A stretch of 64,000 nucleotides of DNA from Bdellovibrionales bacterium (GTDB taxonomy: Bacteria; Bdellovibrionota; UBA1018; CAIMNF01), in the NCBI GenBank assembly GCA_947502835.1, contig CANNBJ010000004.1, positions 295,669 through 359,668 of the forward strand, in the 5' to 3' direction. Position numbers and translations under genes: made by a program. Positions 1 to 20,799 of the stretch are shown piece after piece. A model generated the notes under the pieces. That model was not told where the DNA came from and searched no databases. It saw nothing but the letters and a program-made list of their open reading frames with translations. The stretch's first letter is position 1. Each line of letters opens with the position of its first letter.

Positions 1-750
1 GGGTACCCTGGTTCCGGAACCGGATTTTACCTTCCTGGAGTTTCCGCCAAACCCGATAAGTATTTTGACTTGGATGGAGTGACTCCCATCACGAAGCCGT
101 CCTGGATCAGTGATGTGCAATTGGGCGTGACGGGGAGCCCGGGGCCCAATGTGTGCGCCACAGTGGGAGGACCGGCTGCTGGACCGTTTGATGTGGGCGG
201 TTTCTACAGAGTCAGCGAGGCGGACTGCTCCTCCTCGCTCACCGGAGCCACCCTGAGTGTTCCTGTGTTCATTCGGGTGATCTTGAATCGCGATACGGCC
301 TTCATTGGAACGCGCGAGAATCTCATGCTGCAGCTTGAGTATCGAGCGACCGGATTGCGACCGAATTCGGATGGATCGTCTTCAAATCCTGAGGAAAATC
401 TCGATCATCTGTGGAAGGTGTTTCTCGGGCAGACGCTTTTGTCGTCTGCAAGCCTGACTCCGTTTTCAATCCTGATCCCGCCGAACTATGCGCATTGGTG
501 TACCACCGGTTCCGGGAATTACGATTCCTCAAGTTGTCAGCCGATTGCCGCAAATCGGAGCGCGCCTCCGATCGTGAAACAGGTTTTGATTCCGCTCTCG
601 AGCAATTCAAAACAATCGGTCATTCAAATTCAACGTGTGACGGGCCGGATTCATGCGAATCCCGGCCAAGTGAGTTCGTTTTGCTCTACGGGAAATTCAC
701 CCTTGTGTCTGGGAGTGGTCTTCCACTCTTTGACACTGCTCAGGATGTGA
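1..750 (+). CDS. 3' portion of a secreted protein gene that begins upstream of the window (frame 1 is open from base 1; the ORF track only lists it from the first Met at 70)
   Basis: No stop in frame 1 from 1 to 750. Cys/Gly/Ser-rich composition similar to the next three secreted proteins. Stop at 750 lies 3 bp before the next gene start. Confidence 0.45.
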   Translation, partial: GYPGSGTGFYLPGVSAKPDKYFDLDGVTPITKPSWISDVQLGVTGSPGPNVCATVGGPAAGPFDVGGFYRVSEADCSSSLTGATLSVPVFIRVILNRDTAFIGTRENLMLQLEYRATGLRPNSDGSSSNPEENLDHLWKVFLGQTLLSSASLTPFSILIPPNYAHWCTTGSGNYDSSSCQPIAANRSAPPIVKQVLIPLSSNSKQSVIQIQRVTGRIHANPGQVSSFCSTGNSPLCLGVVFHSLTLLRM

Positions 751-753
751 GAC

Positions 754-1851
754 ATGAAAGAGGCAAGATGGGCATTGCTTCCATTGCTCCTTCTCGGGTG
801 TGCCCGGGAGATTGACCCTGCATCCTTCCAGGAATCCGCACCCGCGGCCACTGCTGCACCCGGAACCGACGAGGCGTCCGCTCGATTCATCTTCCATCGG
901 GACAATTTCACGAATCTAGAGGATTTCGTGACTTTCCAGAATACCGGATTTTCCTGTCTCGGCGATGTCACAAAAACCTTTCGCACCCAGGGAGGGGATT
1001 ATTCCAGCTCTTTTTCGCCATCCTGGAATCCACTCTCAGCGATCCCGTTTGAAATTTCCAATCCGGGCGATGCACTCCAACCGACCTACAAACCCGCATT
1101 CGTAAAAAACATCTCTGTCGACATCACCCGAACTTATTATGCGGAATCCGCGAGTGGAACTGTTCAAACCGATGCCTGTTCCCGAAGAACCGACTCCATC
1201 GCCCCGTCTCCGTGCGCGGATTTTGATCCGGTGTCGACCGGGCCTCTGCCAGCTCCGGGGAGTCCCGTTCCAACCCCGACCCCGCTCCCGACACCCGTGA
1301 ACCCCGCGGATAGGGACGGACTTTTGTTCTACCGGGTTCGGGATCCCTGGTGCCTTGGCCAAGGTGCCATGCAATCCAATGAGCCGGATCTCTCGAAGGC
1401 CTATGTGGGGGGAGTGAACATCGATCTTGATCGAAAGGTGATCGGGGGGAGCGAGGATCTCTTGATGCTGATCACCTATCAATCGTTTGTGTCGGGACCT
1501 TCTTGGCCTTACCTGGGAGGGGGATTGACTTCACTGACCGAGGATGATCACACGAAGCTCAGGGTGGATCTGATTGCGACGGCGCGGGGACTGGATGAAC
1601 TTTTGGAGCGAAAGCAGCCCCGGATGCTTGGAGATTTTGCAGAGTTTGGTGCCGCGGGCGCGGCTCCCATCCTGATCCGGAGCCTGGTGACGCTTGAGGA
1701 CCCGTTTTCCTCGATGAAGACCGAGTCGGTTCTTGTTCCGCTTTCCAGCAATCCATTGGTGGACCGGATCCGGATTGAGCGAATTCGAGGGAGCTATCAA
1801 CTGTATCAGATCGATTTGTATCGCCTAGGGGACCGGCCGCCTGTGAATTGA
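754..1851 (+). CDS. secreted lipoprotein with a Pro/Thr-rich linker, unknown function
   Basis: N-terminus MKEARWALLPLLLLGC carries a lipobox. Internal linker PLPAPGSPVPTPTPLPTPVNP. Tightly packed with flanking secreted-protein genes. Confidence 0.55.
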   Translation: MKEARWALLPLLLLGCAREIDPASFQESAPAATAAPGTDEASARFIFHRDNFTNLEDFVTFQNTGFSCLGDVTKTFRTQGGDYSSSFSPSWNPLSAIPFEISNPGDALQPTYKPAFVKNISVDITRTYYAESASGTVQTDACSRRTDSIAPSPCADFDPVSTGPLPAPGSPVPTPTPLPTPVNPADRDGLLFYRVRDPWCLGQGAMQSNEPDLSKAYVGGVNIDLDRKVIGGSEDLLMLITYQSFVSGPSWPYLGGGLTSLTEDDHTKLRVDLIATARGLDELLERKQPRMLGDFAEFGAAGAAPILIRSLVTLEDPFSSMKTESVLVPLSSNPLVDRIRIERIRGSYQLYQIDLYRLGDRPPVN

Positions 1852-2001
1852 AGGAATGCTTTGGTGAAATGAAGGAGGTTGATCCTGTCAGAATCCTGAC
1901 ACTGTCCAGAAAGTCTTCAGTTTCTGAGCCAAAAAACCGAATGGAAATCGAGGGATTTCGCAAGAATGTTTCTTGCAGCCCTCATGTTTGGGGAAGTTGT
2001 G

Positions 2002-3948
2002 ATGCAGGTTGGGTTCAAGGGAGTTCGTCGACTCCTTGAAAAAACGAGAGTGAAATTCCGGTCCTTCCATGTGCAATGGTCGGGCTTGGGAGTCTTTTTT
2101 CTTTTGGTCTCAGCCGCAATCCAGCCCGCTTGCACCAACATCAAATTCGCGGATCGAAAACTCGCAAGCGAGTTTTTCCTTCCGGATCAGAATTCGGTGA
2201 ACGGGGCATCCTTCAAGATCAACAGCCTCTTTCCGGCATCTGGGGGGGGAGTGTACGAGCTGATTGGTCAAAACGGGGAGTTCGACAATTACTGCAGTGG
2301 AAATTTCGGAGCCTGCTCCTGCGTCTACACCTATACGATCGGGAGCAATGTAAATCAGATTGCCGAATCACAGGTGACCTATCAGGAATCAAATATGCTT
2401 CGGTGCCCGAATGCGGTTCCGACAGGTGCTGCCACATTCAGTGTAAAGATTCAAACCCAGGCCGGAAGCAGTGGAGGCCCGTATTTTTCCAACTCCCTCT
2501 CCTTGAATCTTGAAGCAGGCGGAACTTTCGAGAATTCCGTGGTGTACGCCGATCTTTCGGATGAACGGAGCTATCTCGGGGTCAAGAGATACCAATGCCG
2601 GAGAAATGATTTCATCCCGAGTCCATTTGATTCCGGATTCCTTGATCCGATCCAATCGCAGGATCCGAGGATCATTTACCCATTCAATTTCTATACGACC
2701 AATGTGGGGGAGAGCATGCTTGCCATCCAACGCAACGGGACCGCGGCCGGTTGGGAATGTACCCTGACTCCCACTTTCAACTATTCGCTTCATTGGTGGG
2801 CAAATCCCATGGTCTTCTCGAGCGCACCTTGCACCTCGGCATTTTGTGTGGGAGATGGCGAGCTCATCTATCCCATTGCCTCGCTCGAGAGCGGCCGGAT
2901 TCCTGCTTCGCTTGGCTCCACTGCAACAGGGAAGAGGCGAAGTTCCTTCTCGTTGCTCCCAAGGGCGTATGGAGTGTTCGATGTGCCGGTGATTGCCGCG
3001 GCAGCGCCGAGAGACCTTGTTTCTGCCTTTTACTCAGGCCAGAACATCGACGCCGGACTTACCTTGAGTCCCCTTGGATATGCCGCGAGGCCTGTGATCG
3101 CGGCGGATGGCGGAAGCGCGTGTCCGAACATCACCATTCCTCCGAATGCCCGCTGGGTAAAGCTTTGGAACTTCCGTGCAACCGATCTTGCTTCGCCTCG
3201 TCGCGTTCGAAGCACAATCGCAACGCTGAACCATCCGATTGCATGCCTCAGCTCAGAACCCGATGACCTTTTTGATTCCTGTTACTTTCACGATGCGCCA
3301 AGCAATTCAGGCGCAATCAAGCTTCCTGTAACGGATGCTTCCGGAAGCGCGAGCATGGCGTCCCGGATTGCATTCATGGATGTGAACGGAAGCGGAGGAG
3401 GTGGGCGCGATTCTTCGGCATGCTACAAGCTAAACGCCTACGATACATTCGAGGCGAGCCTTTTTGCCTTCAATTATGAGACCTCGGAGGCGGAGAGCTT
3501 GCTCCGGAGTTATCCTTGGGGAGTCTATTCCACCCTGCCTGCATCTCCCGCTGTCATCACTGAATCGATGGGCACGGGAGTCATGATGCCCGGGGGGGCA
3601 ACTTCGGACACTCTACGAAAGCTTCTGACGGGAATCCCCCGTCCAACCGGGATTCCGACCGATGTGGTGGGTGTCGCCGATACGCTTCCCCTCAGTCAGG
3701 ATTTGTTCTCAGACCACCTGTTTGTGATCACGGATCCATCGGTGAGGGTTGCTGATTTCCAGAATTTGAATTCCAGCGAGTCCAACAATTACCGTCCTGT
3801 GACCTATCGTTCCCGTGGAGCCTGCCCCGGGAATTCGCGGGCCACATGCCTGCAGGATCAAGTGAATTGGGAGCTCAATACAAAAAACATCAACCAACCC
3901 CTTGGACCGGAGGTGTACCCGCTATGCGTGTTGCAATTCTCGGACTGA
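2002..3948 (+). CDS. large secreted lipoprotein, unknown function; start ambiguous (ORF opens at 1966; Met at 2002 precedes the signal peptide)
   Basis: Signal/lipobox GVFFLLVSAAIQPAC-TN. Many Cys. 660-aa ORF with coding-like composition. Confidence 0.55.
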   Translation: MQVGFKGVRRLLEKTRVKFRSFHVQWSGLGVFFLLVSAAIQPACTNIKFADRKLASEFFLPDQNSVNGASFKINSLFPASGGGVYELIGQNGEFDNYCSGNFGACSCVYTYTIGSNVNQIAESQVTYQESNMLRCPNAVPTGAATFSVKIQTQAGSSGGPYFSNSLSLNLEAGGTFENSVVYADLSDERSYLGVKRYQCRRNDFIPSPFDSGFLDPIQSQDPRIIYPFNFYTTNVGESMLAIQRNGTAAGWECTLTPTFNYSLHWWANPMVFSSAPCTSAFCVGDGELIYPIASLESGRIPASLGSTATGKRRSSFSLLPRAYGVFDVPVIAAAAPRDLVSAFYSGQNIDAGLTLSPLGYAARPVIAADGGSACPNITIPPNARWVKLWNFRATDLASPRRVRSTIATLNHPIACLSSEPDDLFDSCYFHDAPSNSGAIKLPVTDASGSASMASRIAFMDVNGSGGGGRDSSACYKLNAYDTFEASLFAFNYETSEAESLLRSYPWGVYSTLPASPAVITESMGTGVMMPGGATSDTLRKLLTGIPRPTGIPTDVVGVADTLPLSQDLFSDHLFVITDPSVRVADFQNLNSSESNNYRPVTYRSRGACPGNSRATCLQDQVNWELNTKNINQPLGPEVYPLCVLQFSD

Positions 3949-6494
3949 TCCTCCTCGCAGTTACCCCCTCTTGTACCAACGTCGGGCAAAGATTCGGACG
4001 CACCACGACGGGGGATCCCTCGGTTTTCACCGGAACAGACTTCAATTCAGTGGCATTCACGCATCAACTGAGCAACGTCTCGGTTGCGCAGGCATCCGGA
4101 GGAGCTACCGGAAATTCAACGCCACAGGTGAACCTGACCCTTGCTTTGAATACGAATGTCGCGGGCTTCACTCCCATCACGCAGTTCTGCGGGACTGGTG
4201 CCAATCCCTGCGCCTGCGAGTTGAATTGGAAGCATACCGACTCCAATGGCCAGCCGCTCTATGATCGTTCCCGCAGGGTGTCGGTCACGACTGTCCAGAG
4301 CGGGAGCGTGAGTTGTTTGATGGCCCAATCGGAATGGGATGAAATCGTACCGGGCGCGATCCTTTCGATTCGCATCGTACCCGTGGGTGGAAATGCAAGT
4401 GGCTTGAATTGTAAAAAAATAGGGTACCGGAAAGGGCAGTCGACCAATCCGAACGGGGATTTCCTGGACGAGACCTTGAACGGATTTCGGAACATCCATC
4501 GCTACACGTGCCATACCAAGCGAAATGCGGCGCATGAAATCCTGAATCGCTTCAGGAGTGTTTCAAAAGTCTCGAGTGCACCCCAAGATGGAAGTGGCGG
4601 GGACCCGGGGGCTTCAAACGAACCCGTGAAGACCTCCGTGGGCACATGTTTCTGCACAGCCCTGTCGGGAGGAGCTGCAAGTGGCGGAGGCAGTTGCAGC
4701 AATCTCCAGTGCCCGAATCTTGCGAGAGCGGGATATTCAGCGCAGAATTATTATCGAAACCTGTATGTCAGATCCGATATTCTGGGCCAAATCAACTCAA
4801 GCAATCTTACTTATGAGTGCCCGAAGGTTCTTGAGTCCGTGAAAGTGAGCGCTGCATCGAGTGCGGGCGCCACCTCAATTCCGCAAGCCGAGCAGAACAA
4901 ATACTGGCCGCTTGATTCTTCCTTTGCGCTCGCAACCCAGTGGTCATCGGAGTGGAGCATTGGAATCATGGCCGGCTCTGTGCTGTTGAAGCCCGGGGAT
5001 CCTAATACCAATCCGGGCACTCCAGAGGTCTGCCGGAACTCGAGCTCTCGATTCAATGAAAACGGGATTTTTCCAAAGTGTCTGGGGTACGCGAAGCCTG
5101 CCAATGGCGATGGAACCTGCGGAACCATGACCGACAGCACCGGAAATGTTCGCCCTCTGGTGCGCCTTCGTCGCTACAGGGCGGTTCTGCCTCCCCGCTT
5201 TGATTCGAACGGGGATCTGGAAGGTGGAGGGAGTCAGGGACAGCAAGGTGGTGGAGGTGGGGGAATCTTTCCGGCGGTGGATGAGATTTATGTAGCGGAC
5301 CGATTGGTTCTTGATCAGAATGCGCTTCCCACCGGAGACATGATTTATGGACCAAAGCCCTGCAACTATGCCTGGTTTGATCATGAGGGCGTGGTGAATC
5401 GGACGGGGACTTCCAATGAGTTTGAGACCAATATCTACACCACGCCCACACAGAACGTAGGGGTGCCGTCCTATGTGGGAACCAATCGTTTTTACCGGAA
5501 TTCGGGAACGTCCGGGTGGGATCCAAGTCTTTCCGTGAATCCGGACGGGCTTGTGTTTCCCAATCACGATCGCTTTGGTCTCGGAATCGAGACCCGGAAC
5601 CAGACTTCGTGCTCGGCGTCGATTCCGATCGTGAATTACAATCAAGGACAGGCACAATCCCTTTCTCTGTTCACCTCAAACTCCAATCGGACCTCGGCTG
5701 CCATCAACTTGGGCGGGTACCTGGTGGGTAGCAAGACCGTCTATCAGGATGAAATTCACCTGCGGCCGATTGATCCGTGGACTCCTCAGTATCTGGAGGA
5801 CACATCCTTCAGGGCCTGCGTTCCGCTTTCAAGCGAGTTTACCGAACCGCCTCTTCACTTTTACAAGGATGCGAACGATCGCTATGCTTGGTGCGCCGAA
5901 GTGTATCCAAGCCAGAATCCCTACTGGTCCGAAATCAATAAAAAGCGAAGAGTATTCAATCCCACCTCGTCCTCTGATCCGGAGCTGATCAATTCCACCA
6001 ATCTTGTGGGTTATCCGACTTCAACGGCCAAGGTTCAAGGATACACTTCCCACGTGGTCAATATTGCAGGTCAGAGTGCTTGTTCCGCGACCCCAGGGAA
6101 TCAGATTTGTACAATGACGACATCCGCGGGAGCCGGGTTCAACAACTGTGTGAGCTTTTTGAATCGCACGTCCGGCCTCACCTGTGATCGGACTGTAATG
6201 TTCAACCCATTTCAGGACTATCGGGATTTCCCGCTTCAGGCAAGTGCCGCCGATACGGAAGCCATGTTGAGTGCCGATCTTGCCAACCAGGGGTCGTTTT
6301 CCTGCACCTATTCTGTGAGCTCGGATCCGCAAAAGGTGAATCGGCAGTTTCCGTCTTCCGCATGTTGCGGAGTCCGGAATGGCGGTCCTGTCTTGAATAG
6401 TCTGATCGGCCCGGGTGCGGGGTCGGGACATCTTGAGCCGTTTTCCGACCCGAGTGCACCGAATTTCCGCTTTTGCGGATCTCCTGTTCGCTAA
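3924..6494 (+). CDS. large Cys/Gly-rich secreted lipoprotein, unknown function
   Basis: Internal Met at 3924 gives MRVAILGLILLAVTPSC-TN, the same C-T-N lipobox context as the previous gene. Overlaps the previous gene by 25 bp, so likely an operon. Contains the GGGSQGQQGGGGGG tract. ORF track lists 3846..6494. Confidence 0.55.
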   Translation: MRVAILGLILLAVTPSCTNVGQRFGRTTTGDPSVFTGTDFNSVAFTHQLSNVSVAQASGGATGNSTPQVNLTLALNTNVAGFTPITQFCGTGANPCACELNWKHTDSNGQPLYDRSRRVSVTTVQSGSVSCLMAQSEWDEIVPGAILSIRIVPVGGNASGLNCKKIGYRKGQSTNPNGDFLDETLNGFRNIHRYTCHTKRNAAHEILNRFRSVSKVSSAPQDGSGGDPGASNEPVKTSVGTCFCTALSGGAASGGGSCSNLQCPNLARAGYSAQNYYRNLYVRSDILGQINSSNLTYECPKVLESVKVSAASSAGATSIPQAEQNKYWPLDSSFALATQWSSEWSIGIMAGSVLLKPGDPNTNPGTPEVCRNSSSRFNENGIFPKCLGYAKPANGDGTCGTMTDSTGNVRPLVRLRRYRAVLPPRFDSNGDLEGGGSQGQQGGGGGGIFPAVDEIYVADRLVLDQNALPTGDMIYGPKPCNYAWFDHEGVVNRTGTSNEFETNIYTTPTQNVGVPSYVGTNRFYRNSGTSGWDPSLSVNPDGLVFPNHDRFGLGIETRNQTSCSASIPIVNYNQGQAQSLSLFTSNSNRTSAAINLGGYLVGSKTVYQDEIHLRPIDPWTPQYLEDTSFRACVPLSSEFTEPPLHFYKDANDRYAWCAEVYPSQNPYWSEINKKRRVFNPTSSSDPELINSTNLVGYPTSTAKVQGYTSHVVNIAGQSACSATPGNQICTMTTSAGAGFNNCVSFLNRTSGLTCDRTVMFNPFQDYRDFPLQASAADTEAMLSADLANQGSFSCTYSVSSDPQKVNRQFPSSACCGVRNGGPVLNSLIGPGAGSGHLEPFSDPSAPNFRFCGSPVR

Positions 6495-8020
6495 AGAAAG
6501 GCATCTGTCCTCCGGTAGGTCCGTGCCTCCAGAAGATCCGGATCACCCGGAGTCTCCCGGCCCTCCAAGGCAGCAATGGAGCAGGCGATTCGGATCAGTT
6601 TGTGACGATCCCTGAGGCTTCCGGTCTCACTCAGGATTGAAATCGCGCGCGATGACTTCGGAATCCAACGTTCGATCCTTTCAGGAGGAATCCGGGAAGG
6701 AGGAGCTCCGTGAACATGCTCAACCAGGGAGCGCGCCTGCCTGATTTCGTTCTCGATCTGTTCAAAAGAAGTGTTCTTTGGTGGGCTTGGGGAGCCAGGC
6801 CCTGAAAAAATCGCCCAAAGGTCGATTCGATCGAGGATCGGGCCCGAGAGTCGATGAAGGTATTTGCGGATTTCCGCCTCGGAGCAACGGCATCCCGGTC
6901 CCCTTTGAACCGCATCCAGCCGGAAGCGATGCGGAAGTCCACCGCAGGGACAAAGATTTCCACTCCCGATCAACTGGAGATCGCATTTGGCCTGCAGGGT
7001 TCCCCGCACGGAACTCACGCTGAAACACTCGGACTGCAGGGGTTCCCTCAAGCACTCCTTTGAATCCCGGGGCCATTCGGGAAATTCATCGGCAAAGAGC
7101 ATGCCCCCGTGAGCAAGCGAGAGTTCTCCTGCACGAAAGGAACCGGAATGAAACGACCCGAGCAAATGCGCGGGCCTGACCTGGGAGTGGACCTGTCGAA
7201 GGGGAGCGTCGAATCCGGGATGCTCATTGCGTGTTTCTTGATAAAGAGCCCTCTCCCATGCGGCACCTTTCGGTGGTGACGGGGCAAGCGCTCCAAACCA
7301 CGCAAGGGATGCCGATTTCCCGGCGCCTTTCGGCCCAAGGAGAAGAGTGTGGTGGCGACCCACGCAGGCGATTTTCAGGATTCGCTCCTGGAGGGGGGCA
7401 AGAGGGAGAAGAAAAGGCGGACTCATCGAAGACTGATGTGATGATTTAGGAAGAGATGAGCATTGAGTGGAACTCCGTGATGAGACTGAAGCAGGGAGAT
7501 CGCGAAGGTGTTCGATCCGGAGCACACCCGCGGGTTTCGGATTGAGCAGCCCGTTTTTTTCCCTCCAGGAGAGCAGTCGAAGGAACTCCGCGTGATCTTC
7601 GGGGCCCAGAATCAGGGTGAGTTGTTCGGGATCGGGAATGGACTTCAACATCAGCTCAATCAGATGTCCCATTTTTCCGCCGGGTTTGATCAAGCCATCC
7701 AGACCAAGCTCGCCCCGTGCAATCACCCTCGAGTCAAGGAGAAGTGCGCCGCTTCCGGAAAGAATCCGAAGGGCAATCGCAAGATCATGCCCGGTTCCCG
7801 ACTTCCGGATGGACGCCGGAGCAAGATTGATCAACACCCGCTTCTTTGGAAAGTCCAGCTCGGAGGCTTGGAATGCGGAGATGATTCGCTCCCTCGCCTC
7901 CTGGATCTCGGGTGCGGGGAGCCCGAGGATCTGGAACCCGGGAATCTGAAAGCGAGCGCTGTATTCGACGGTCAGGACTTCGGGGGTGAGATCCCGGATG
8001 AAGAAGGAAAGAACCTGCAT
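6491..8020 (-). CDS. comM: ComM/YifB-family Mg-chelatase-like AAA+ ATPase
   Basis: N-terminus MQVLSFFIRDLTPEVL...FQILGLPAPEIQEARERI...INLAPASIRKSGTGHDLAIALRIL matches the ComM/YifB N-domain pattern. Walker A GPKGAGKS. 509 aa. Confidence 0.75.
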   Translation of the reverse strand: MQVLSFFIRDLTPEVLTVEYSARFQIPGFQILGLPAPEIQEARERIISAFQASELDFPKKRVLINLAPASIRKSGTGHDLAIALRILSGSGALLLDSRVIARGELGLDGLIKPGGKMGHLIELMLKSIPDPEQLTLILGPEDHAEFLRLLSWREKNGLLNPKPAGVLRIEHLRDLPASVSSRSSTQCSSLPKSSHQSSMSPPFLLPLAPLQERILKIACVGRHHTLLLGPKGAGKSASLAWFGALAPSPPKGAAWERALYQETRNEHPGFDAPLRQVHSQVRPAHLLGSFHSGSFRAGELSLAHGGMLFADEFPEWPRDSKECLREPLQSECFSVSSVRGTLQAKCDLQLIGSGNLCPCGGLPHRFRLDAVQRGPGCRCSEAEIRKYLHRLSGPILDRIDLWAIFSGPGSPSPPKNTSFEQIENEIRQARSLVEHVHGAPPSRIPPERIERWIPKSSRAISILSETGSLRDRHKLIRIACSIAALEGRETPGDPDLLEARTYRRTDAFL

Positions 8021-8054
8021 GGCATCGGCAAGTGCAAGTCCTGTGCGAGGGGGA

Positions 8055-8546
8055 TCAGCGATCGCGAAGGGATTTCAACATCCGGTTTTTCGCATCATTG
8101 ATCCGGGCGGAGGCTTCCTGGTAGAATCGCAAGTCCGAGTCGGACTTTCCTTGCAAAGTATCAGGATGAAACCGTTTGATTGCATCCTTGTAGGCACGAA
8201 CAATCTCGGCCTCCGATGCGTCTTCGCGGATTCCGAGGATTTCATGGGGTTCTCCCTCGAGGCGAATGCCCGGAAGGGAAAGGGGAGGAGGGGATGGCTG
8301 CTCTGCCTGTTTTCTTCGCAGTTTGGCTTGTGCGAGATCCGGACCCGAATTCAGGATCCGGTCAAGATCCCCGCGATCCGCCTCCCGGCTCCTGAAGTTC
8401 GACTGTCCCCGATTGTTCTTGAGAAAGGTCCAAATCAGGAACAAAACCGCAAGGAGGAAGAGGATCTGGATTTTCTGGAAATTTCTTGCGATCCATTCGA
8501 GTGTCGACATGATGCCAGTATAGAAGGCCCGCTTCCTGCAAGGCAA
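8055..8546 (-). CDS. J-domain (DnaJ-like) membrane protein; start may be the internal Met at 8510
   Basis: N-terminal TM segment IQILFLLAVLFLIWTF. C-terminal J domain ILGIREDASEAEIVRAYKDAIKRFHPDT with the HPD motif. Confidence 0.6.
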   Translation of the reverse strand: MPCRKRAFYTGIMSTLEWIARNFQKIQILFLLAVLFLIWTFLKNNRGQSNFRSREADRGDLDRILNSGPDLAQAKLRRKQAEQPSPPPLSLPGIRLEGEPHEILGIREDASEAEIVRAYKDAIKRFHPDTLQGKSDSDLRFYQEASARINDAKNRMLKSLRDR

Positions 8547-8557
8547 GGCTTTGTCTC

Positions 8558-10216
8558 ATGGATGATGCCACACTTGAATCCCTGACGCGGGAATGGATGG
8601 AGGCCTTGATGTTCCATAAGCCCGTGAGGAGCGGTGTGGATGGAGTGCTCCGGGTTTCCGGTGTTGTCCATCTCTACGGGGCAAGCGGGATTCATCTCTA
8701 TGCCGTGGCCGGATGGATCGGGTTCGCCCTGAAACAACTGTGCCGTGTTCTCAAGATTCCCTCGCGTGCATTCTCCTTCCTCGGGCTGCTCTTTTTCCTG
8801 ATTGCGGTGTTGATGATCTGGAGGCTTCAGGGGTTTTCCTTCGCCTTGTTCCGGCCCCTCAGTTCCATTCTGATTCGTGCGGGTTTGCGCGAATCAGGAC
8901 ACAGAGTATGGATTTTCGCGCCCCTGATCCTTACGTTTGCGATCGAATGGATTCTCAGTCATGAAACCGGGCTCTCCCCCGGGGCATCCCACTACTATCT
9001 TGCCGTCGGGGGATCGCTCCTGGTTCTGGGCCGGGGTGATTCATTCCGTTCAAAGCTCGAACTCCATTTCTGGATGGCGATTGCCTCCTGGGTTCCGATT
9101 GCCCTTCTCGATCTTTACTCGGATCACCTCGTTGCTCCGTGGACTCCGTTGATCAGCCTGCTTACGATTCCCCCGCTCACTTTGCTGCTTTTTCCCTCCT
9201 CCTTGCTTGCACTCCTTTTCTTCGGCGGGGTGCCCGAGGCTCTTTTCCGGGTGTGGATGTTGTGTTTCGGGCTTCTGATCCGTGTGCTCGACTTGGTTCC
9301 GGACGTGTACTCGATTGATTTTGATTCCATGACGAGTCCAGCTTTGATCGCGGCTCCGATGATCGTCCTGGCACTCAAGGCCCGGCACTGGTTCGGGCTC
9401 TCCGGTTTCTCTGCGATTCCCCTTCCGGGTGCCCTGATTGCATGTCTGTGGGCAATGGGAGTTCCCCGGGAAGTGAATCAAGTGGTCCAATTCGATGTTG
9501 GTCAGGGGGATGCGGCCTTGATCCGGGAGGGGAGTCGTGCAGAGCTGGTCGATGCGGGGCCCGAGCAGGGAGCCGGACCTGAAGTCTGGATCCGGAGGCT
9601 CAGTCGCTTTGGTGTGAATCGGCTTGATGCCGTGCTCTTCACGCATCTCGACCAGGATCATGTCGGAGGCGTTCATGCCCTGGCCTCGGTGATCCCGATC
9701 GGCTGTCTCGAAATGTCCACGCATCATTCCGGCATCGAAAAAGGAGTGACCCTCAGAGCTTGGGCCTCGAGGCTTCCCGAAGCTCCTGCAATTCGAACAC
9801 AAGGGTGCATCGGGCTCTCGAGGGTGGGTTGGTTCCAAAGCTCCCGGGGCCAAGCCTCCGGAAACCGCTGGATGGGAGGTGTTTTCCGGAGGATCTCGGA
9901 TCGGGAGGCCTACTTTGCGCTCGGGGACGGGGATTCCGGGCAGGAGGAACAATTCGAGCGGAAATTCAGGACCTCGATACAAAATGCAAAAGTCAGGGTC
10001 TGGAAGGTGGGGCATCATGGATCGCGATTCTCGAGCGCCTCCGGATTCCTGGATCACATGAATCCAACAGAGCTCTGGATCTCGGTGGGGCGCAGGAATT
10101 CCTATCAGCATCCATCGCCCGAGACGATGGCACGGCTCACCTTGCAAACAGGAGGAGTGAAACGGACGGATCGTGATGGAGATCTGATCTATCGCAAAGG
10201 GGGTTCGACCTTGTAA
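8558..10216 (+). CDS. comEC: DNA internalization competence protein ComEC/Rec2 (polytopic membrane domain plus metallo-beta-lactamase domain)
   Basis: Multiple TM helices. Metallo-beta-lactamase motifs FDVGQGDAALI and FTHLDQDHVGG. C-terminal HGSRF and YQHPSPETM typical of ComEC. The start may be an internal Met because the annotated start lies only 11 bp from the divergent J-protein start. Confidence 0.75.
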   Translation: MDDATLESLTREWMEALMFHKPVRSGVDGVLRVSGVVHLYGASGIHLYAVAGWIGFALKQLCRVLKIPSRAFSFLGLLFFLIAVLMIWRLQGFSFALFRPLSSILIRAGLRESGHRVWIFAPLILTFAIEWILSHETGLSPGASHYYLAVGGSLLVLGRGDSFRSKLELHFWMAIASWVPIALLDLYSDHLVAPWTPLISLLTIPPLTLLLFPSSLLALLFFGGVPEALFRVWMLCFGLLIRVLDLVPDVYSIDFDSMTSPALIAAPMIVLALKARHWFGLSGFSAIPLPGALIACLWAMGVPREVNQVVQFDVGQGDAALIREGSRAELVDAGPEQGAGPEVWIRRLSRFGVNRLDAVLFTHLDQDHVGGVHALASVIPIGCLEMSTHHSGIEKGVTLRAWASRLPEAPAIRTQGCIGLSRVGWFQSSRGQASGNRWMGGVFRRISDREAYFALGDGDSGQEEQFERKFRTSIQNAKVRVWKVGHHGSRFSSASGFLDHMNPTELWISVGRRNSYQHPSPETMARLTLQTGGVKRTDRDGDLIYRKGGSTL

Positions 10217-11802
10217 ATCCGCCAAGGGCCAAGAGTCTTCAGTTTCCGAAAGTTCGAATCAAGAAAAGAAAAAGAAATCGGATGGTTCTGAAACGTTTCC
10301 TGCGAGCCGACGACAATGTATTCCGCTCCCAGCGATCTTGCTTGCTCCAGCGCATCCCCCGAGCCAAGAAGCACCGAGCCCACTTTTCGTTCCAGCAAGG
10401 TGTAGTTGATTCCCCAGCTCCAGAGCCAGCCGGGATATCCCATCACAACGGGATTTCCGGTGAGACAGGGAATCGGATGATTGTGAATCGGAGTGATGAG
10501 TACCCGTGCGTCGGGCGAGGAGCGCAGCTTCTTGAATTCGGAGGCAAGGTCTTGATCAAGCTCCGTGAACCAGACGGTTTTTTCAATCCCTTGCTGAAAC
10601 GACCAAAGATCGCGGGTGGCACTTGCACACTGGAGTGCGAGAAGGAGGAGGGCGGCGCTCCTCAAGGCACCCTGAAAGCGGTCAAGGAAAAGGCCGAAGA
10701 AGGGAGCAAAAAACAGGAAGGAATAGGTGAAGATTTTGAGATTGTCGTAGAAATAAGGCTGCACACAAAACAACAGAGCGACCAGAAACAAAAGAAAGCC
10801 CGCAAGGGCAAGGGACATGAGATTCCGGTTCCTCCGGGAAAGCACGATTTCAATGAACACAAGCGGCAGAAAAACCCCCGTATTGTAGATCCAGAACCAG
10901 AGGGGGTTCATGGATGCGGCAAGCGGTTGTCCGGCAGCCTCGTTTTGCGCCCATCCCGGGAGAAAGATCCTCCACTGGTGCGGAAACGGATTCGGACTTC
11001 GGAAAAGAAACCAGAGGCAAAGCGCACCGATCCCCCCGATCACCGCACCTCGGCCCACCACCTGTGCGCGATCCGTGAAGTCCCCGGAGTCTTTTCGCGG
11101 GAAGCAGAGCAATGCCAGTAGAAAAAACGGAATCGCGATGAAGCTGTGAAGGTGAACCAGAGGCAGAATTCCAAGCAGAAAGAGTGCGAGCCGCTTTGAG
11201 TGCTTGTTGCTTTTTCCCAGCAGTGTCCCTGTGCTCCAAAGCACGGCACACAATCCGAACAGAAAGGCCCGCTGGGGGTAGAGTTCAAAAAGGAGAAATG
11301 AGGTGAAAATCGATCCGTGTTCGAATTGATTGGTCAGGGGCTTTGCCGGATTCAGTGAGGAATCAAAAATCTGGAGACCCCCCATCAAGAGGAATCCCAG
11401 GGTCGAGTACAGGGAGGCCCGCGGAGAGAGGTTCCACTTTTGGAAAAAACGAAACAGGAGAAACGGGAGAAGAAACAGAAGCAGGGCAGAGGTGAACACC
11501 ATGCCGTGGATCGTTTGGATTCCGAGCCCCATCGAAAGGACGGCCGTGAGCAGATGACTTAAGAACGGGTAGCGGAAGGGAGCGTCCTGGAACAGGGGAT
11601 TCGGATCGAGGATCCAGGAAAGCCCCCGCTGCCGAAAGGCCTCCGTGAAGCTCAAATGGGCCGACCAATCCCCCCAGATCGAGAAACTCCCCACAAGAAG
11701 TCCCTCGCCATCGACGGAGTGGAACAAGGAAATGAAAACCAAAGTGATCCATGTCGCAAGCGAGAGCAGGAGGAGTGGAATTGGCTTAAAAAGCTGTTTC
11801 AT
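10189..11802 (-). CDS. polytopic integral membrane protein, possibly a GT-C-type glycosyltransferase
   Basis: 537 aa with more than 10 hydrophobic helices. Paired divergently, 29 bp apart, with another GT-C-like membrane protein. Confidence 0.5.
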   Translation of the reverse strand: MKQLFKPIPLLLLSLATWITLVFISLFHSVDGEGLLVGSFSIWGDWSAHLSFTEAFRQRGLSWILDPNPLFQDAPFRYPFLSHLLTAVLSMGLGIQTIHGMVFTSALLLFLLPFLLFRFFQKWNLSPRASLYSTLGFLLMGGLQIFDSSLNPAKPLTNQFEHGSIFTSFLLFELYPQRAFLFGLCAVLWSTGTLLGKSNKHSKRLALFLLGILPLVHLHSFIAIPFFLLALLCFPRKDSGDFTDRAQVVGRGAVIGGIGALCLWFLFRSPNPFPHQWRIFLPGWAQNEAAGQPLAASMNPLWFWIYNTGVFLPLVFIEIVLSRRNRNLMSLALAGFLLFLVALLFCVQPYFYDNLKIFTYSFLFFAPFFGLFLDRFQGALRSAALLLLALQCASATRDLWSFQQGIEKTVWFTELDQDLASEFKKLRSSPDARVLITPIHNHPIPCLTGNPVVMGYPGWLWSWGINYTLLERKVGSVLLGSGDALEQARSLGAEYIVVGSQETFQNHPISFSFLDSNFRKLKTLGPWRIYKVEPPLR

Positions 11803-11831
11803 GTGGGAAAATCCTCACTTAGGATTAGATC

Positions 11832-13292
11832 ATGAAGCTCTTTCTTGTTCCACTGATCATCCTTGTGCTGTTGCGATTTTGGGATCTTGACCTGAGACCC
11901 ATCCACCATGACGAGGCGGTAAATGGATGGTTTGTGGACGGACTCTTGACCCGGGGATACTACATTTACGACCCCGAGAATTATCATGGCCCCTTCTTTT
12001 TCTATGTTCTTGCGCTCTTTGAGAAGGTGTTTGGTCGAAGTCTGGCATCCCTCCGGACTCCGGCAGTGCTGTTCGGTGCAGCTCTGACCTTTGCTCCCCT
12101 TTTCTTTCGCAAATGGATCGGATCGAGAGCGGCCTGGATCTCGATTGCGGTGCTGACACTCTCCCCGGCCATCGTGTTTTTTTCCCGCTATTCCATTCAT
12201 GAAACGGCGTTTGTGTTTTCTTGCATCCTGTTCCTGAGACTCTGGCTCACCGTTCGAGAGTCCCCCTCGGGCACAGGGCTTTGGGTGATACTCGGACTTT
12301 CTCTCGGGCTCATGGCTTCCCTGAAGGAGAATTTTGTGGTGTTCGGTGCGGCCCTCGGGTTGGCTGAGCTCGCAGGTGCTGTTCAAGACAGGCGGATGGG
12401 ATTTTTTCGGGAACGCCGGTTTTGGAGAGGGGTTGTGGTGTGTTTCGGGGTTGCACTGCTCATGATCGCAGTTGTGTTCACAGGGGGGTTCCAGGACGGT
12501 GACGGGTTTGGAAAGTTCTTTCTTGCGTTTGCGAAGTGGGCGGGAACAGGCACGAAGGGAAACGGCCACGAAAAGCCGTTTCTGTATTGGGTGGAACTGA
12601 TGGGGCGCTTCGAGTGGCCTGTGTTTGCGGGTCTGATTGCCAGTTTTGTGGTTGCGGTCAGAGACTCGGGGTTTGTCCGATTGAATGCCTGGATCGGGAT
12701 TTTTTCGTGGCTCGTCTATTCGCTTGTCGCCTACAAGACTCCTTGGTGCATTCTGAGTCTTCTGTTTTTCCCGACACTTGCGTTTGGTGTGGTGGTGGAC
12801 AAGACCCTTTTGAAACTCGAATCAGGAAAGAAAACCAAAAACAAGAGTTCACTCCTTCCCCGAAATGTGTTTGCTGGCTTGCTGGTGGCAGGGGGACTCT
12901 TTTCTGGGTACCGGGCGTTTGAGGTCTCCTGGCTCAGTCCGGATCAGGACGGGCATCCTTACATCTATGGCCAGACCTATCGGGATTTTCTTGGGCCCGT
13001 CCACAAGATCCTTGCAAAGGTGGCATCCATGCCGGAAGGGAAGGAGACCACGCGGATCCAGGTTTTGAGCAGGTTCACTTGGCCGCTTCCGTACCTGCTC
13101 GGCGAGATCAAGCAGGCTGGCTACTATGGCGAGAGCAATGCACCTGCCGAGTTCAATGCGGATTTCGTGTTGATGGACGAGGATCTGCTCCCGAAATACG
13201 AGTCAAGGCTGAAGGGCAGGTATGAGCGCGAGGTGGTGCGGGCACGGCAATGGTCCTCTCGCATGGTGTTCATGAGCAAGACCGGGGATTGA
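11832..13292 (+). CDS. ArnT/PMT-like (GT39/GT83-type) membrane glycosyltransferase family protein
   Basis: N-terminus MKLFLVPLIILVLLRFWDLDLRPIHHDEAVNGWF resembles the DE-containing first loop of ArnT/PMT-like GT-C enzymes. Multi-TM, 486 aa. Confidence 0.5.
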   Translation: MKLFLVPLIILVLLRFWDLDLRPIHHDEAVNGWFVDGLLTRGYYIYDPENYHGPFFFYVLALFEKVFGRSLASLRTPAVLFGAALTFAPLFFRKWIGSRAAWISIAVLTLSPAIVFFSRYSIHETAFVFSCILFLRLWLTVRESPSGTGLWVILGLSLGLMASLKENFVVFGAALGLAELAGAVQDRRMGFFRERRFWRGVVVCFGVALLMIAVVFTGGFQDGDGFGKFFLAFAKWAGTGTKGNGHEKPFLYWVELMGRFEWPVFAGLIASFVVAVRDSGFVRLNAWIGIFSWLVYSLVAYKTPWCILSLLFFPTLAFGVVVDKTLLKLESGKKTKNKSSLLPRNVFAGLLVAGGLFSGYRAFEVSWLSPDQDGHPYIYGQTYRDFLGPVHKILAKVASMPEGKETTRIQVLSRFTWPLPYLLGEIKQAGYYGESNAPAEFNADFVLMDEDLLPKYESRLKGRYEREVVRARQWSSRMVFMSKTGD

Positions 13293-13300
13293 TCACCCCG

Positions 13301-14485
13301 TCACTCCCGGGTTGCCGCCTTCACAATTGCATCGAGCAGTGTCCAGTCGTCTTTGAAGTTTTTCGTGTCGCGCCCGAGCCCCTCCGGATCAAAAGCCTGT
13401 CTCCAGATGAAATCAGGATAGCTCGAGTCCTCGGCCCACTCTCCCCCGATGATGCGGTCTGCGGCGTTCAGCTCGAGAACATAGCGGTAGGTTGCCATTC
13501 CATAGTGCTGATTGCCGGGGCCAAGAGGTTCGTACCGGGGGGAAGCTGTCCGATCGTTTTCTTCGCCCGGTCCATGAGCGGAATAGAGTTCGTTGACGTA
13601 CCTGATGGTGGTTTCAAAGGAAAACTCCCGCACGGTTCCAGGCGTTTTGTCTTTTGAGAGGTCCCTGGTCTTCACTCCCGTGATTTTTGATTCAAAGCCG
13701 ACAACCGGATGATTCCACACCTGAAGCCCCGGGTCGCGGTCGATCGCGATTCCGCGTTTTCGAATCCCGATCTCGTTCGTCAGCGCGATGTGGAAGGCAC
13801 CCGCGTTGATGTCACTGCACCCGCCCGTTGCGTTCAGAAGAATGCGATCCTTCGCCCTGCACGCACGACCGATGTAGCCGTGAAAGGGATTCTTCGAAGG
13901 CTCGACTGTGCGGTCAAGATACGAGTAGTAGTAGGCAAGAAGGCCCTTGATGTCGCTTGAGCCGAAGGGAACCCGGATTCCATTTACAGGGGACGTGAAC
14001 AGGATGTTCTTCGGTTCATCGAAATGAAGCGAGGCATGGGTCCAGCCGTTGCAAAGACCCCGCCACCAATCACGATCGCCCGGGTTCTTCTTCCGGAAGA
14101 ACTTTGCCGTCGGAAAATCGAGTTTCCCGCGGACGATGTCGAATTTTTCGGCAGGAGACAGCAGGTTCAGTTGGCCCGGAGCCATCCGGTACACGGTTTC
14201 CGGTTTCGGCAGATCATAGTCCTTGAACTTGAAGGCAAGTGCCGGAACCTGCCAGCGATCCGCGATGTAGCCGCGTGTGGCAGGCCAATAGGAGTCGGAC
14301 CAGCCCTTGCGGGAGGAATCGAGGTTTCCAGAGAGGGGAAGAGAATTCAGGCTGTACACATAGTCAAGCTCAAGGTTCTTCGGATCATTCGCCTCATTCC
14401 AGTTTCGATCGGCGAGGGAGGTGAGCGGGATCAGGGTGAGTAGGATTCCGGGTGCAAAGAGATTTTTGAGAGTCCTGATTTTCAT
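13301..14485 (-). CDS. secreted hypothetical protein (394 aa)
   Basis: Signal peptide MKIRTLKNLFAPGILLTLIPLTSLA. No motif recognised with confidence; a GLCNGWTHAS segment is noted. Confidence 0.5.
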   Translation of the reverse strand: MKIRTLKNLFAPGILLTLIPLTSLADRNWNEANDPKNLELDYVYSLNSLPLSGNLDSSRKGWSDSYWPATRGYIADRWQVPALAFKFKDYDLPKPETVYRMAPGQLNLLSPAEKFDIVRGKLDFPTAKFFRKKNPGDRDWWRGLCNGWTHASLHFDEPKNILFTSPVNGIRVPFGSSDIKGLLAYYYSYLDRTVEPSKNPFHGYIGRACRAKDRILLNATGGCSDINAGAFHIALTNEIGIRKRGIAIDRDPGLQVWNHPVVGFESKITGVKTRDLSKDKTPGTVREFSFETTIRYVNELYSAHGPGEENDRTASPRYEPLGPGNQHYGMATYRYVLELNAADRIIGGEWAEDSSYPDFIWRQAFDPEGLGRDTKNFKDDWTLLDAIVKAATRE

Positions 14486-14552
14486 GGCTGGAAACCTAAG
14501 AGCATTTCAGGTATTTGTCAATGAACCTTGTTTACAAAAAAAGGAAACCAAA

Positions 14553-15323
14553 GTGACCGCATTTCTTGAGTATTTTTCAGAGCTTTATGGCCCGAGGTGG
14601 CCCGATCTGCATGCGGCTCTCGGCCGGGAGCCGGTGCGCGTCGATCGGGAATGCTTTGGAGGATTTGCCCGGTATACCCTCGACTCCGCATCCGTTCGCG
14701 CGGCCCAAGCTCTCCGGGTGAGACCGGGGGATCGGGTGCTTGATCTTTGTGCCGCCCCGGGCGGGAAGGCGCTCGTGTTGCTCGAGTCTCTCGAAGGCAA
14801 GGGCGGTCTCATCGCAAATGAGTTGTCGTCTGATCGAAGGAGACGGCTCAAGGACGTGATTGCAACCCATGTTCCACCGGGAGATCAGGCATTGGTCGAG
14901 GTGACCGGGTTTGATGGAAATCTTTTCGGATTGAAACAAAAGTCCGCATTCGACCGTGTGCTGCTGGATGCCCCTTGTTCGAGCGAGCGCCACATGATGG
15001 AGGATGATCCAAGCGTGCCCGAGTGGAAGGAGTCGCGCACCCGTCAGCTCGCGATGCGGCAGTATTCGTTGATTTGTTCTGCGATTCTAGCGCTCAAGGA
15101 AGGCGGCACGCTTGTTTACTCCACGTGCTCGATTTCTCCCCTCGAGAATGACGGAGTAATCGAGAGGGTTCTAAAGAAAAAAGGAGATCGGGTGGAACTT
15201 GATCCCGACACGGATGACCTGTCGGATCTTGAGCACACCCGATGTGGCTTTCAGATTTTCCCTGATCGGGCCAAGGGAGCTGGTCCGATTTACATTGCGA
15301 GGCTCAAGGTGAAGACTTGCTGA
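14553..15323 (+). CDS. NOL1/NOP2/Sun-family RNA cytosine-C5 methyltransferase (RsmB/RsmF-like); GTG start chosen downstream of the convergent neighbour
   Basis: SAM-binding motif LDLCAAPGGKA. Motif LLDAPCSSER around the catalytic Cys. TCSISPLENDGVI near the C-terminus. The ORF track start at 14421 overlaps the upstream gene; an RBS aaggaaacc precedes GTG at 14553. Confidence 0.7.
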   Translation: MTAFLEYFSELYGPRWPDLHAALGREPVRVDRECFGGFARYTLDSASVRAAQALRVRPGDRVLDLCAAPGGKALVLLESLEGKGGLIANELSSDRRRRLKDVIATHVPPGDQALVEVTGFDGNLFGLKQKSAFDRVLLDAPCSSERHMMEDDPSVPEWKESRTRQLAMRQYSLICSAILALKEGGTLVYSTCSISPLENDGVIERVLKKKGDRVELDPDTDDLSDLEHTRCGFQIFPDRAKGAGPIYIARLKVKTC

Positions 15324-16515: not shown

Positions 16516-16935
16516 TTGAACATGAATCAGTTTTTCGTTGCATTGGGGGTACTGGTCGGAACAGCGTCTTTCGCCTGTCCATTGGGTTCCAATTGGTTGC
16601 CGCCCGGGGAGGTATTGGAGTCAGGATGTACGATCATTGCCGCCGGCAATGGTCAAGGGGGGTTTAGCCCGCCTTGGGCGCCTGGCACACTTTATTGCCC
16701 TCAAAGCGTCATGAGTGGTTCCGTCTCTTGTTATTATGTGAAAAAGTGCACGATTCCTGGAGTGGACTATTGCCTGAGAAAGGTTTTTCATCAAAACGGG
16801 ACGATTCAGGTTACCATGAATACACCGCTGGTTTGTCCGAGCGGATTGCACAAAGCGGTGGACAGGTCGGGCAGCACCGACAAATGCATCCGGATAACTG
16901 AAGTTAAGGCATCAGAAGGCGCTGCGATCCGATGA
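16516..16935 (+). CDS. small Cys-rich secreted protein (10 Cys in 139 aa)
   Basis: Signal peptide MNMNQFFVALGVLVGTASFA followed by regularly spaced Cys residues. Confidence 0.45.
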   Translation: MNMNQFFVALGVLVGTASFACPLGSNWLPPGEVLESGCTIIAAGNGQGGFSPPWAPGTLYCPQSVMSGSVSCYYVKKCTIPGVDYCLRKVFHQNGTIQVTMNTPLVCPSGLHKAVDRSGSTDKCIRITEVKASEGAAIR

Positions 16936-17854: not shown

Positions 17855-17866
17855 CGGACCCGGATC

Positions 17867-20059: not shown

Positions 20060-20799
20060 TCCCCCTTCAGGCCTTTCATCATGTTCTCAAGGTCGCCCGG
20101 TCTCCACGAGGTTCGAATGCGAAGGCCCGGGTCGTACCAGTTCGATCCGATGGACCCCGATTGTCCCGTGCGATCGCGCTCGAAATCGATCGGCGAGTAA
20201 TTGAACATCGGTGTTTTCATCACGAAGCAGTAATTGAGCTCCTGGTGGTTGAGGTACTCTTCATAGGTCTCGATCAGGGGGCATTCGGTTTTCGGAAAAA
20301 TGAAGTAGCGGGTCCACTGCGCAATGCTGATCGGACGGGAGTCAAAGCGCTTGATGTCCTCGGGACGCACCCATGAGGGAGGTGAAACAAACACCGGATC
20401 GAACACGCGCTCTTCGACCGAACCGTCGGCAAGTCGCACCGGAATGAGGGGGGCGACATGAAAGGACCATTGGTAGTCGAACTCGCGGCGGTAGCGATCC
20501 GTGAAGAACAAAAAGACCTTCATGCTTCGGATCCCGATGTTGCTGAACAGCTCATGCGACCAGTAGTGGGCCCGCTGGTAGCAACCCGATCTTCGGGTGA
20601 AGATCGAGGTGGGCATCATGTTGTAAAGGTTCTTCGCGCTCTCTTCGCTTGCAAGAAGTGAAGGTTGAAAGCCCCGGATCGACCGGTTGGCCGAGTAGGG
20701 TACCGGGAGTTCCCGGTCGGCGAGCGTCACTTGCGCGCGGGCCTGGCTCAGGAGCGAGAGGGTCAGGAGGGAGGCTGTGAGAAGGGGCTTCAACATCAT
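20056..20799 (-). CDS. secreted protein-glutamine glutaminase-like (transglutaminase-fold Cys-His-Asp) enzyme
   Basis: Signal peptide MMLKPLLTASLLTLSLLSQARAQ. Motifs SGCYQRAHYW, WSFHVAPLI and ERVFDPVFVSPP parallel the GCYARAH / WSYHVAILV / IIDPSLFS triad region I recall for Chryseobacterium protein-glutaminase. Confidence 0.55.
   Translation of the reverse strand: MMLKPLLTASLLTLSLLSQARAQVTLADRELPVPYSANRSIRGFQPSLLASEESAKNLYNMMPTSIFTRRSGCYQRAHYWSHELFSNIGIRSMKVFLFFTDRYRREFDYQWSFHVAPLIPVRLADGSVEERVFDPVFVSPPSWVRPEDIKRFDSRPISIAQWTRYFIFPKTECPLIETYEEYLNHQELNYCFVMKTPMFNYSPIDFERDRTGQSGSIGSNWYDPGLRIRTSWRPGDLENMMKGLKGD

Follow-up and report, generated by a model that had tools for sequence, protein, structure and literature searches.

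A conserved four-gene lipoprotein module of uncultured Bdellovibrionota with two remote paralogue pairs, one of them with a shared Cys-Thr-Asn lipobox

CglB is a Cys-rich outer-membrane lipoprotein adhesin of the gliding machinery of Myxococcus, a predatory diderm, and an adhesive role has been proposed for it. The type V pilins (FimA/Mfa) of Bacteroidota are formed from lipoprotein-precursor subunits, and the several genes for these, which differ in size, form an operon. The lipoprotein export signal (LES) of Bacteroidota is the motif K-(D/E)2 or Q-A-(D/E)2 immediately after the lipidated cysteine (Lauber et al. 2016, PMC5080379). When considering architecture and logic, the surface glycan-binding proteins of Bacteroidota (Sus-like; SusE/F and BtuG/H) and the LES are the closest analogues of the locus described here, by analogy and not by membership. 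This locus fills positions 1-6494 of a 64,000-nucleotide stretch (the window) of contig CANNBJ010000004.1 of a Bdellovibrionales bacterium, and it consists of four consecutive, co-directional open reading frames (ORFs) on the + strand, g1, g2, g3 and g4. That these form a real, operon-like module of lipoprotein genes, defining four new families of proteins which belong to two superfamilies, is firmly supported. In the literature, no described lipoprotein cluster of such kind was found for Bdellovibrio or Bdellovibrionota. New here are the protein families and the conservation of Thr-Asn in two of them, rather than a demonstrated mechanism.

The tight packing of the four genes (Table 1), as proposed in an earlier sequence-only reading of this DNA, is borne out by the ORF coordinates. 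The junctions, described there as ranging from 3 bp to overlapping, are a 3-bp gap for g1-g2, a 114-150-bp gap for g2-g3 and a 25-bp overlap for g3-g4. The start of g4 is placed at 3924 and not at 3846, giving a protein of 856 amino acids (aa), because the homologues cover the 882-aa ORF only from residue ~27 on and because a GGAGG sequence is found 10 nucleotides upstream of this ATG. This putative Shine-Dalgarno sequence lies within g3, an arrangement which is consistent with translational coupling of g3 and g4. At its stop codon, g4 shares 4 nucleotides with a convergent ComM-like gene. No Rfam match is found over the whole window, and a scan for promoters and terminators gives nothing above the shuffled expectation.

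Lipoboxes are present in all four families, and the lipobox cysteine is invariant in every orthologue alignment. The rule used for membership is a signal peptide with a positively charged n-region, an uncharged h-region and the pattern [LVI][ASTVI][GAS]-C, with the cysteine ~15-35 residues from the start. By this rule, the four proteins are predicted to be bacterial membrane lipoproteins of the signal peptidase II substrate type. The lipobox of g2 (LLLGC, cysteine at residue 16) also agrees with the strict PROSITE pattern PS51257. In g3, a long basic n-region is followed by GLGVFFLLVSAAIQPAC-TN (lipobox AAIQPAC-TN), and the N-terminus of g4 is MRVAILGLILLAVTPSC-TN (lipobox AVTPSC-TN). When using crude start-codon calling, the strict rule is passed by 40/57 orthologues of g4, 28/52 of g3, 30/38 of g2 and 19/25 of g1, and the orthologues which fail it visibly carry lipoboxes. 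The earlier claim that all four genes have signal or lipoprotein N-termini is thus confirmed directly for g2, g3 and g4, but the N-terminus of g1 is outside the window and its lipobox is visible only in orthologues, where the full length is ~324 aa. A complete copy (5859-6833, lipobox LLLMGC) is found in locus L001 (GCA_027483485.1). The g1 part present in the window has the C-terminal motif VLIPLSSNSKQSVIQIQRVTG.

The composition of the four proteins was also described as unusually rich in Cys, Gly, Ser and Asn. Ser, Asn and Gly are indeed more abundant than in 21 other window proteins, and Lys and Glu are depleted. The Cys content is 2.4 % in g1, 2.5 % in g3 and 3.2 % in g4, against 0.8 % in the other proteins, which is a 3-4-fold enrichment, and there are about 15-20 invariant cysteines in each of the two large proteins. 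The protein g2 (1.4 %, 5 Cys) is not Cys-rich. Elsewhere in the window, Cys-rich ORFs are seen at 35543-36004 (+; 153 aa, 11 Cys) and 16516-16935 (+; 139 aa, 8 Cys), both as candidate genes only, and at 42989-44137 (-; 382 aa, 12 Cys, no Pfam match).

The conservation of the module was assessed with a species scan using one genome per Genome Taxonomy Database (GTDB) species, which yielded 60 loci. In tblastn searches of the four proteins against these loci, the order g1-g2-g3-g4 is found wherever the contig is long enough, and the four genes and their order are kept down to 27-30 % identity, in changing contexts. The ComM, DnaJ and ComEC genes are downstream in the window and in loci L001, L003 and L064. 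Upstream, PepA and HrpB are found in L001 and unrelated genes in L064; in L065, a chalcone-isomerase-like gene lies upstream and the genes downstream are unrelated, and the downstream genes of L055 are again different. The conserved unit consists of exactly four genes, because the flanking genes vary between lineages. A small same-strand gene without a Pfam match follows g4 in L003 (7061-7549, 162 aa) and L065 (14715-15254, 179 aa); it is missing in the window, where g4 abuts the ComM gene.

The closest contigs are from Bdellovibrionales or Oligoflexia metagenome-assembled genomes (MAGs), at 67-94 % identity. The organism belongs to the predatory phylum Bdellovibrionota, which fits the predatory or surface-active bacterium that the earlier reading had in mind. 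All loci except the two of Bdellovibrionota bacterium FG-1 are labelled as MAGs, mostly as Bdellovibrionales, Oligoflexia, Bacteriovoracaceae or Bdellovibrionota, with a few other or generic names, and, FG-1 aside, the sources are mostly freshwater lakes, ponds, reservoirs and groundwater. Among 5.8 billion proteins, g2, g3 and g4 each retrieve only a few dozen 90 %-identity clusters, which are all 'hypothetical' and lack Pfam domains; where an organism is named, it is a Bdellovibrionales or 'Proteobacteria' MAG. A hidden Markov model (HMM) of the g4 family gives 218 matches in 1.84 billion representative proteins; the 20 of these that were inspected are all unnamed or hypothetical proteins, and those with an organism name are all from MAGs. 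In every search made, the module is absent from cultured Bdellovibrio and Bacteriovorax. The restriction of the module to uncultured Bdellovibrionota, as judged from these searches, is firmly supported. FG-1 is a magnetotactic bacterium of the class UBA1018, recovered from sorted cells (PMC13200544). It has two complete copies of the module on different contigs (Table 1), which are 38-46 % identical gene for gene; the assembly is from ~100 sorted cells, and the two copies may stem from two strains.

The mature proteins of g3 and g4 are predicted to start with Cys-Thr-Asn, a feature which was pointed out in the sequence-only reading and which is conserved across the orthologues. Among distinct N-termini, Thr at +2 and Asn at +3 are found in 34/52 and 45/52 of the g4 orthologues and in 29/47 and 36/47 of the g3 orthologues, respectively, so that the +3 Asn is present in 77-87 % of the orthologues, phylum-wide. 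The positions from +4 onward are variable and mostly uncharged. The g2 orthologues favour C-[AG]-[GA]-[DN], and those of g1 show no pattern after the lipobox cysteine. A +3 Asn is found in 0/21 other predicted lipoproteins of the same loci (~0.9 Mb) and the window, and no further ORF of the window carries the Cys-Thr-Asn motif. The preservation of Thr-Asn in two paralogues that are otherwise ~20 % similar argues for selection on both residues, and Cys-Thr-Asn is a real, conserved family feature. An N-glycosylation sequon at the +3 Asn is ruled out, because Ser or Thr at +5 is present only in a minority of the orthologues (roughly a quarter or fewer). Neither the Cys-Thr-Asn of g3 and g4 nor the C-[AG]-[GA]-[DN] of g2 agrees with the LES consensus, so the likeness with the LES is conceptual only.

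The two large proteins, g3 and g4, had been considered to look paralogous, and a lack of detectable similarity between them had been named as counting against the earlier proposal. By BLASTP this is literally the outcome, as the best match (E=0.64) covers only 13 residues around the lipobox. The comparison of the family profiles with hhalign reveals a remote kinship, with a probability of 95.7 % and an E-value of 9e-9 over 330 columns of the N-terminal ~400 residues. When signal peptides and lipoboxes are removed, the probability is 82 % and the E-value 1e-5 over 263 columns, and the reversed-sequence control has an E-value of 0.38. The landmark pairs of this alignment (g4/g3) are FC-G-x-C-x-CE-x-W / YC-G-x-G-x-C-x-CEY-x-Y, VQSG-x-V-x-C / YQESN-x-x-RC, IHRYTC / VQRFQC, CLGYAKKP…DGTCG / IGYAA-P…SSCPNI and VRLRRYRA / VKLWNFRAT. 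No relation exists between the C-terminal part of g3 (~250 aa) and that of g4 (~430 aa), and no internal repeats are found in either protein. A second pair is formed by g1 and g2 (hhalign probability 98.3 %, E-value 1e-14, 223 columns), of which an early hint was the BLASTP match VLIPLSSN…IQIQRVTG / VLVPLSSN…IRIERIRG. There is no detectable relation between g1/g2 and g3/g4. These profile comparisons show the module to be composed of two ancient paralogue pairs, g1/g2 and g3/g4, the latter through the N-terminal ~400 aa only. The paralogy of g1 and g2, the partial extent of the kinship of g3 and g4, the restriction to one phylum and the exact four-gene unit had all been overlooked in the earlier reading.

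Neither Pfam nor NCBIfam has a match for g1-g4, even at E<=1, and in agreement with the previous remark that recognisable enzymatic motifs are lacking, no enzymatic domain is recognised. Pfam also finds no match in any of the 25 members of the g2 family, and PDB sequence-profile searches with the family alignments A1, A2 and A3 give nothing meaningful. The g2 alignment A3 (25 orthologues) has 50 invariant columns; conserved N and C modules flank a Pro/Thr-rich linker, and the C module ends in IPLSQNxLVDRIRIERVRGSYHLYQIDLYRLG. In a more distant sister clade, which includes UBA1018-type genomes, the g2 orthologues are 1350-1700 aa long, and ~1100 aa of Kelch repeats (matches to PF24681, PF13418 and PF01344) replace the linker, as in L055 (957-5465, 1502 aa), L022 (1285-5784) and about 17 other loci. 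These long orthologues match the Kelch/galactose-oxidase-type propellers, whereas g2 of the window, in which Pfam detects no Kelch repeats, has its Pro/Thr linker at the place of insertion; no evidence for the active site of a copper-radical oxidase was found in this comparison. Kelch β-propellers are typical interaction modules. The C-terminal module of g1 and g2 (…DRIRIERVRGSYHLYQIDLYRLG) gives the impression, and only that, of the last strands of discoidin/CBM-type (carbohydrate-binding module) jelly rolls.

AlphaFold2 models of g3 and g4 were built from the family alignments. The mean predicted local distance difference test score (pLDDT) and the predicted template modelling score (pTM) are 71.3 and 0.74 for g4 and 73.8 and 0.60 for g3. 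In both models, a low-confidence segment of ~25-30 residues follows the lipidated cysteine, after which seven β-strands (residues 47-169 of g4 and 73-170 of g3) are followed by β-rich, loop-rich regions. Stretches with a pLDDT of 85-95 are seen for residues 190-410 and 560-648 of g3 and for residues 270-430, 620-670 and 770-856 of g4, with low-confidence Gly/Ser-rich or indel-rich inserts scattered over the models. The domain after the tether has the seven-stranded β-sandwich of the IPT/TIG family (PF01833, E-set), and it resembles the IPT/TIG domains of plexin and Met, the NF-κB/NFAT C-terminal domains and the Ig-like domain of ANTXR2. The sequence identity is 8-20 %, ~90 of the 650-860 residues are matched, the remaining domains are unmatched, and there is no Pfam match to the PF01833 profile at E<=1. 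This IPT/TIG-like Ig domain, as predicted by structure only, is the only fold-level membership that holds, and no fold match is found for the well-predicted domains of g3 and g4.

The divergence was measured in one genome pair, the window and L001, which are 94 % identical. The ratio of nonsynonymous to synonymous divergence (dN/dS) of g1-g4 is 0.11-0.25, and because of these low values the four are considered to be real genes under purifying selection. The synonymous divergence (dS) of the module is 0.12-0.28, being 0.19-0.28 for g1, g3 and g4 and intermediate (~0.12) for g2. In the region 1-15323, the dS of g1, g3 and g4 is roughly 3-10-fold above that of most flanking genes, with values of 0.02-0.08 for DnaJ, ComEC, a 537-aa membrane protein, PMT_2 and a TGase-elicitor-like gene, 0.12 for ComM and 0.40 for an RsmB-like gene. 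This mosaic hints at recombination tracts or a recombinational replacement of the locus, and the raised synonymous divergence, which resembles that of surface loci, is weak evidence in this single genome pair.

Table 1. Positions of the genes, modules and signals of the four-gene locus in the window, and the two FG-1 copies
Feature	Position	Strand	Remark
g1, 3' part	1-750	+	249 codons; frame 1 open from base 1 at window edge
g2	754-1851	+	predicted 365-aa lipoprotein; start MKEARWALLPLLLLGC; Cys codon 799-801; ORF call
g2 N module	about 871-1233	+	orthologue alignment
g2 Pro/Thr-rich linker	about 1247-1308	+	
g2 C module	about 1321-1848	+	ends in VPLSSNPLVDRIRIERIRGSYQLYQIDLYRLG
g3	1966 or 2002 (ATG) to 3948	+	predicted lipoprotein of 648-660 aa
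g3 lipobox Cys codon	2131-2133	+	Thr-Asn next
g3 Ig-like domain	about 2209-2517	+	predicted; disordered tether before it
g3 module common with g4	about 2086-3204	+	
g4	3924-6494	+	predicted 856-aa lipoprotein; start MRVAILGLILLAVTPSC
g4 lipobox Cys codon	3972-3974	+	Thr-Asn 3975-3980
g4 Ig-like domain	about 4056-4433	+	predicted
g4 module common with g3	about 3924-5201	+	
g4 unique C-terminal half	about 5200-6491	+	holds invariant CDRT and HLEP motifs
GGAGG, putative Shine-Dalgarno for g4	3909-3913	+	inside g3 3' end, 10 nt upstream of ATG 3924; read from sequence
FG-1 copies of the module	L026, L052		contigs JBBCAW010000127, JBBCAW010000033

It is possible, with about an even chance in our judgement, that the module encodes four lipid-anchored, disulfide-stabilised cell-envelope proteins which form one heteromeric complex at the outer membrane or surface, having a binding role. 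Each protein would leave the cytoplasm through Sec, receive its lipid at the lipobox cysteine and lose its signal peptide to signal peptidase II. Two ancient duplications would have given g1/g2 and g3/g4. The large proteins would consist of a disordered tether of ~25-30 residues, an Ig-like (IPT/TIG-type) spacer and larger Cys-rich, β-rich domains without a known fold, and g1 and g2 would be smaller two-module proteins. In g3 and g4, the Thr-Asn next to the lipidated cysteine may be a determinant of sorting or assembly. A joint action of the four as a complex is suggested because of the strict co-occurrence and order of the genes, the duplication of the whole module and the g3-g4 overlap with its internal Shine-Dalgarno sequence. 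All four would be located in the outer membrane because there is no Asp at +2, following the Lol rule of Escherichia coli, which may not apply here. Most probably the proteins would serve to bind or recognise the prey envelope or a polysaccharide, at the cell surface or the outer membrane; this role is proposed because of the disordered tethers, the Ig-like spacers as in surface lipoproteins of Bacteroidota, the Kelch inserts, the variable loops on conserved disulfide-rich cores and the raised divergence. The idea of an adhesin or surface-complex locus, put forward in the sequence-only reading, fits the Ig-like N-terminal domains, the tethers and the Kelch inserts of the g2 orthologues.

Several points weigh against this proposal. 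Its functional part is inferred, and no experiment or homology ties the module to any function, which holds equally for the adhesin idea; the sequence alone fits surface exposure and a periplasm-facing orientation alike. Beside the module, no gene for a transporter, for secretion or for a pilus is conserved. Because of Pro at -2, the window's lipoboxes of g3 (QPAC) and g4 (TPSC) do not agree with the strict PS51257 pattern. With respect to Cys-Thr-Asn, the control set comprises no more than 21 lipoproteins, orthologues do not count as independent observations, and the motif of g3 and g4 is possibly just inherited. The models are of moderate quality (pLDDT 71-74), so that the 'novel fold' could partly be model error. 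Finally, the C-terminal half of g4 contains invariant His, Asp and Glu (HLEP, WFDHEG, ED), which leave room for a role as an enzyme.

This last point is in line with the alternative that survives best, namely a periplasm-facing lipoprotein complex with a role in enzymatic processing or envelope biogenesis, such as remodelling of the cell wall or outer membrane, which is unlikely but retains an appreciable probability. The lipoproteins of most diderms besides Bacteroidota and spirochaetes face the periplasm, and this general tendency favours it. The invariant polar motifs E625-D626, D755-R756-T757, H836-x-E838 and F485-D486-H487 of g4 could form a metal or active site, and catalysis would be possible for the domains which are well predicted in the models and lack a fold match. 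However, long disordered tethers with Ig-like spacers, like Kelch inserts, are seen more typically in binding proteins on display, and the absence of the module from the cultured Bdellovibrio and Bacteriovorax argues against a core function in envelope biogenesis.

It is rather improbable that the four lipoproteins are co-transcribed yet functionally independent, as a tandem array of diverged paralogues held together by history. The composition of two paralogue pairs agrees with such an array, and the complex is deduced from sequence features. Nevertheless, all four genes and their order persist to the low identities and through the changing contexts described above, the whole module is duplicated in FG-1, the g3-g4 overlap with the internal Shine-Dalgarno sequence suggests coupled expression, and g1/g2 are unrelated to g3/g4, so that the module is not simply a tandem duplication.

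A nutrient-capture accessory system like the Sus-like glycan-binding surface lipoproteins of Bacteroidota (SusE/F, BtuG/H type) has the same architecture of lipid anchor, tether, Ig-like domain and ligand-binding domains, as well as a short conserved post-Cys motif recalling the LES (PMC5080379), but it is very improbable, since no SusC-type TonB-dependent transporter or SusD-like Pfam family flanks the module in the window, L001, L003, L064 or L065, the motif is Thr-Asn and not K-(D/E)2, and the phylum differs. On the same two grounds, the missing SusC/SusD neighbours and the missing K-(D/E)2 motif, membership in the Sus-like systems is rejected. The surface lipoproteins of Bacteroidota have no sequence homology to g1-g4, and their surface exposure sets them apart from the module, for which it is proposed here.

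Membership in the type V pilins is also rejected, as neither two transthyretin-like domains nor a match to the Pfam FimA/Mfa profile is found, although the common C-terminal β-strand-like motif of g1 and g2 could in principle serve as a donor strand. CglB is likewise a Cys-rich lipoprotein that has been proposed to act in adhesion in a predatory diderm; a CglB-like VWA adhesin was considered and is not supported.

Other features of the window lie outside the module. The gene at 20975-24790 (+) encodes a 1271-aa protein whose ATP-grasp domains (PF14403, PF04174) are circularly permuted, and the opposite strand encodes a Gln_deamidase_2 protein (20056-20799) and two proteins without a Pfam match (17867-20059, 730 aa, and 16943-17854, 303 aa). 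This cluster (16943-24790) looks like a peptide-modification or amidoligase-type system. The gene at 13301-14485 (-), whose L001 orthologue carries PF16683 (TGase_elicitor), adjoins PMT_2 glycosyltransferase-like membrane proteins (11832-13292 and 10189-11802); PF16683 is known mainly from oomycete transglutaminase elicitors. In the stretch 46000-50000, the GC content is 0.49-0.50, compared with 0.55 elsewhere in the window, and this stretch, which includes an AAA_14/DUF4143 ATPase with a PD-(D/E)XK-like tail (47391-48557, -), may be a small island. A PilB/PilT-type T2SSE ATPase (33461-34615) is followed by an overlapping 317-aa ORF (to 35526) with a lipobox-like LILVSCASAG and no Pfam match. 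A fusion of a PIN domain and a PhoH-like ATPase (29749-31098, +; PF13638 and PF02562) adjoins a SNF2/SWIM helicase (27030-29777, -).

The most far-reaching version of the proposal combines a prey- or substrate-recognition complex of uncultured freshwater Bdellovibrionota with Thr-Asn as an undescribed lipoprotein sorting signal and with new folds for g3 and g4; taken together, this is a decidedly improbable combination. If it is true, the Thr-Asn signal would direct surface export or a dedicated assembly, with a logic like that of the LES of Bacteroidetes and a different chemistry. In any case, the Cys-Thr-Asn N-terminus offers a simple candidate, open to testing, for a determinant of sorting or assembly in a group beyond the well-studied Proteobacteria and Bacteroidota, and the bodies of g3 and g4 (up to ~700 residues, with ~15-25 conserved cysteines), being without detectable structural relatives, are reasonable targets for structure determination. 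Should the module encode a surface complex, a large uncultured section of the Bdellovibrionota, to which the magnetotactic class UBA1018 belongs, would have a lineage-specific envelope structure, which may have a part in the recognition of prey or substrate.

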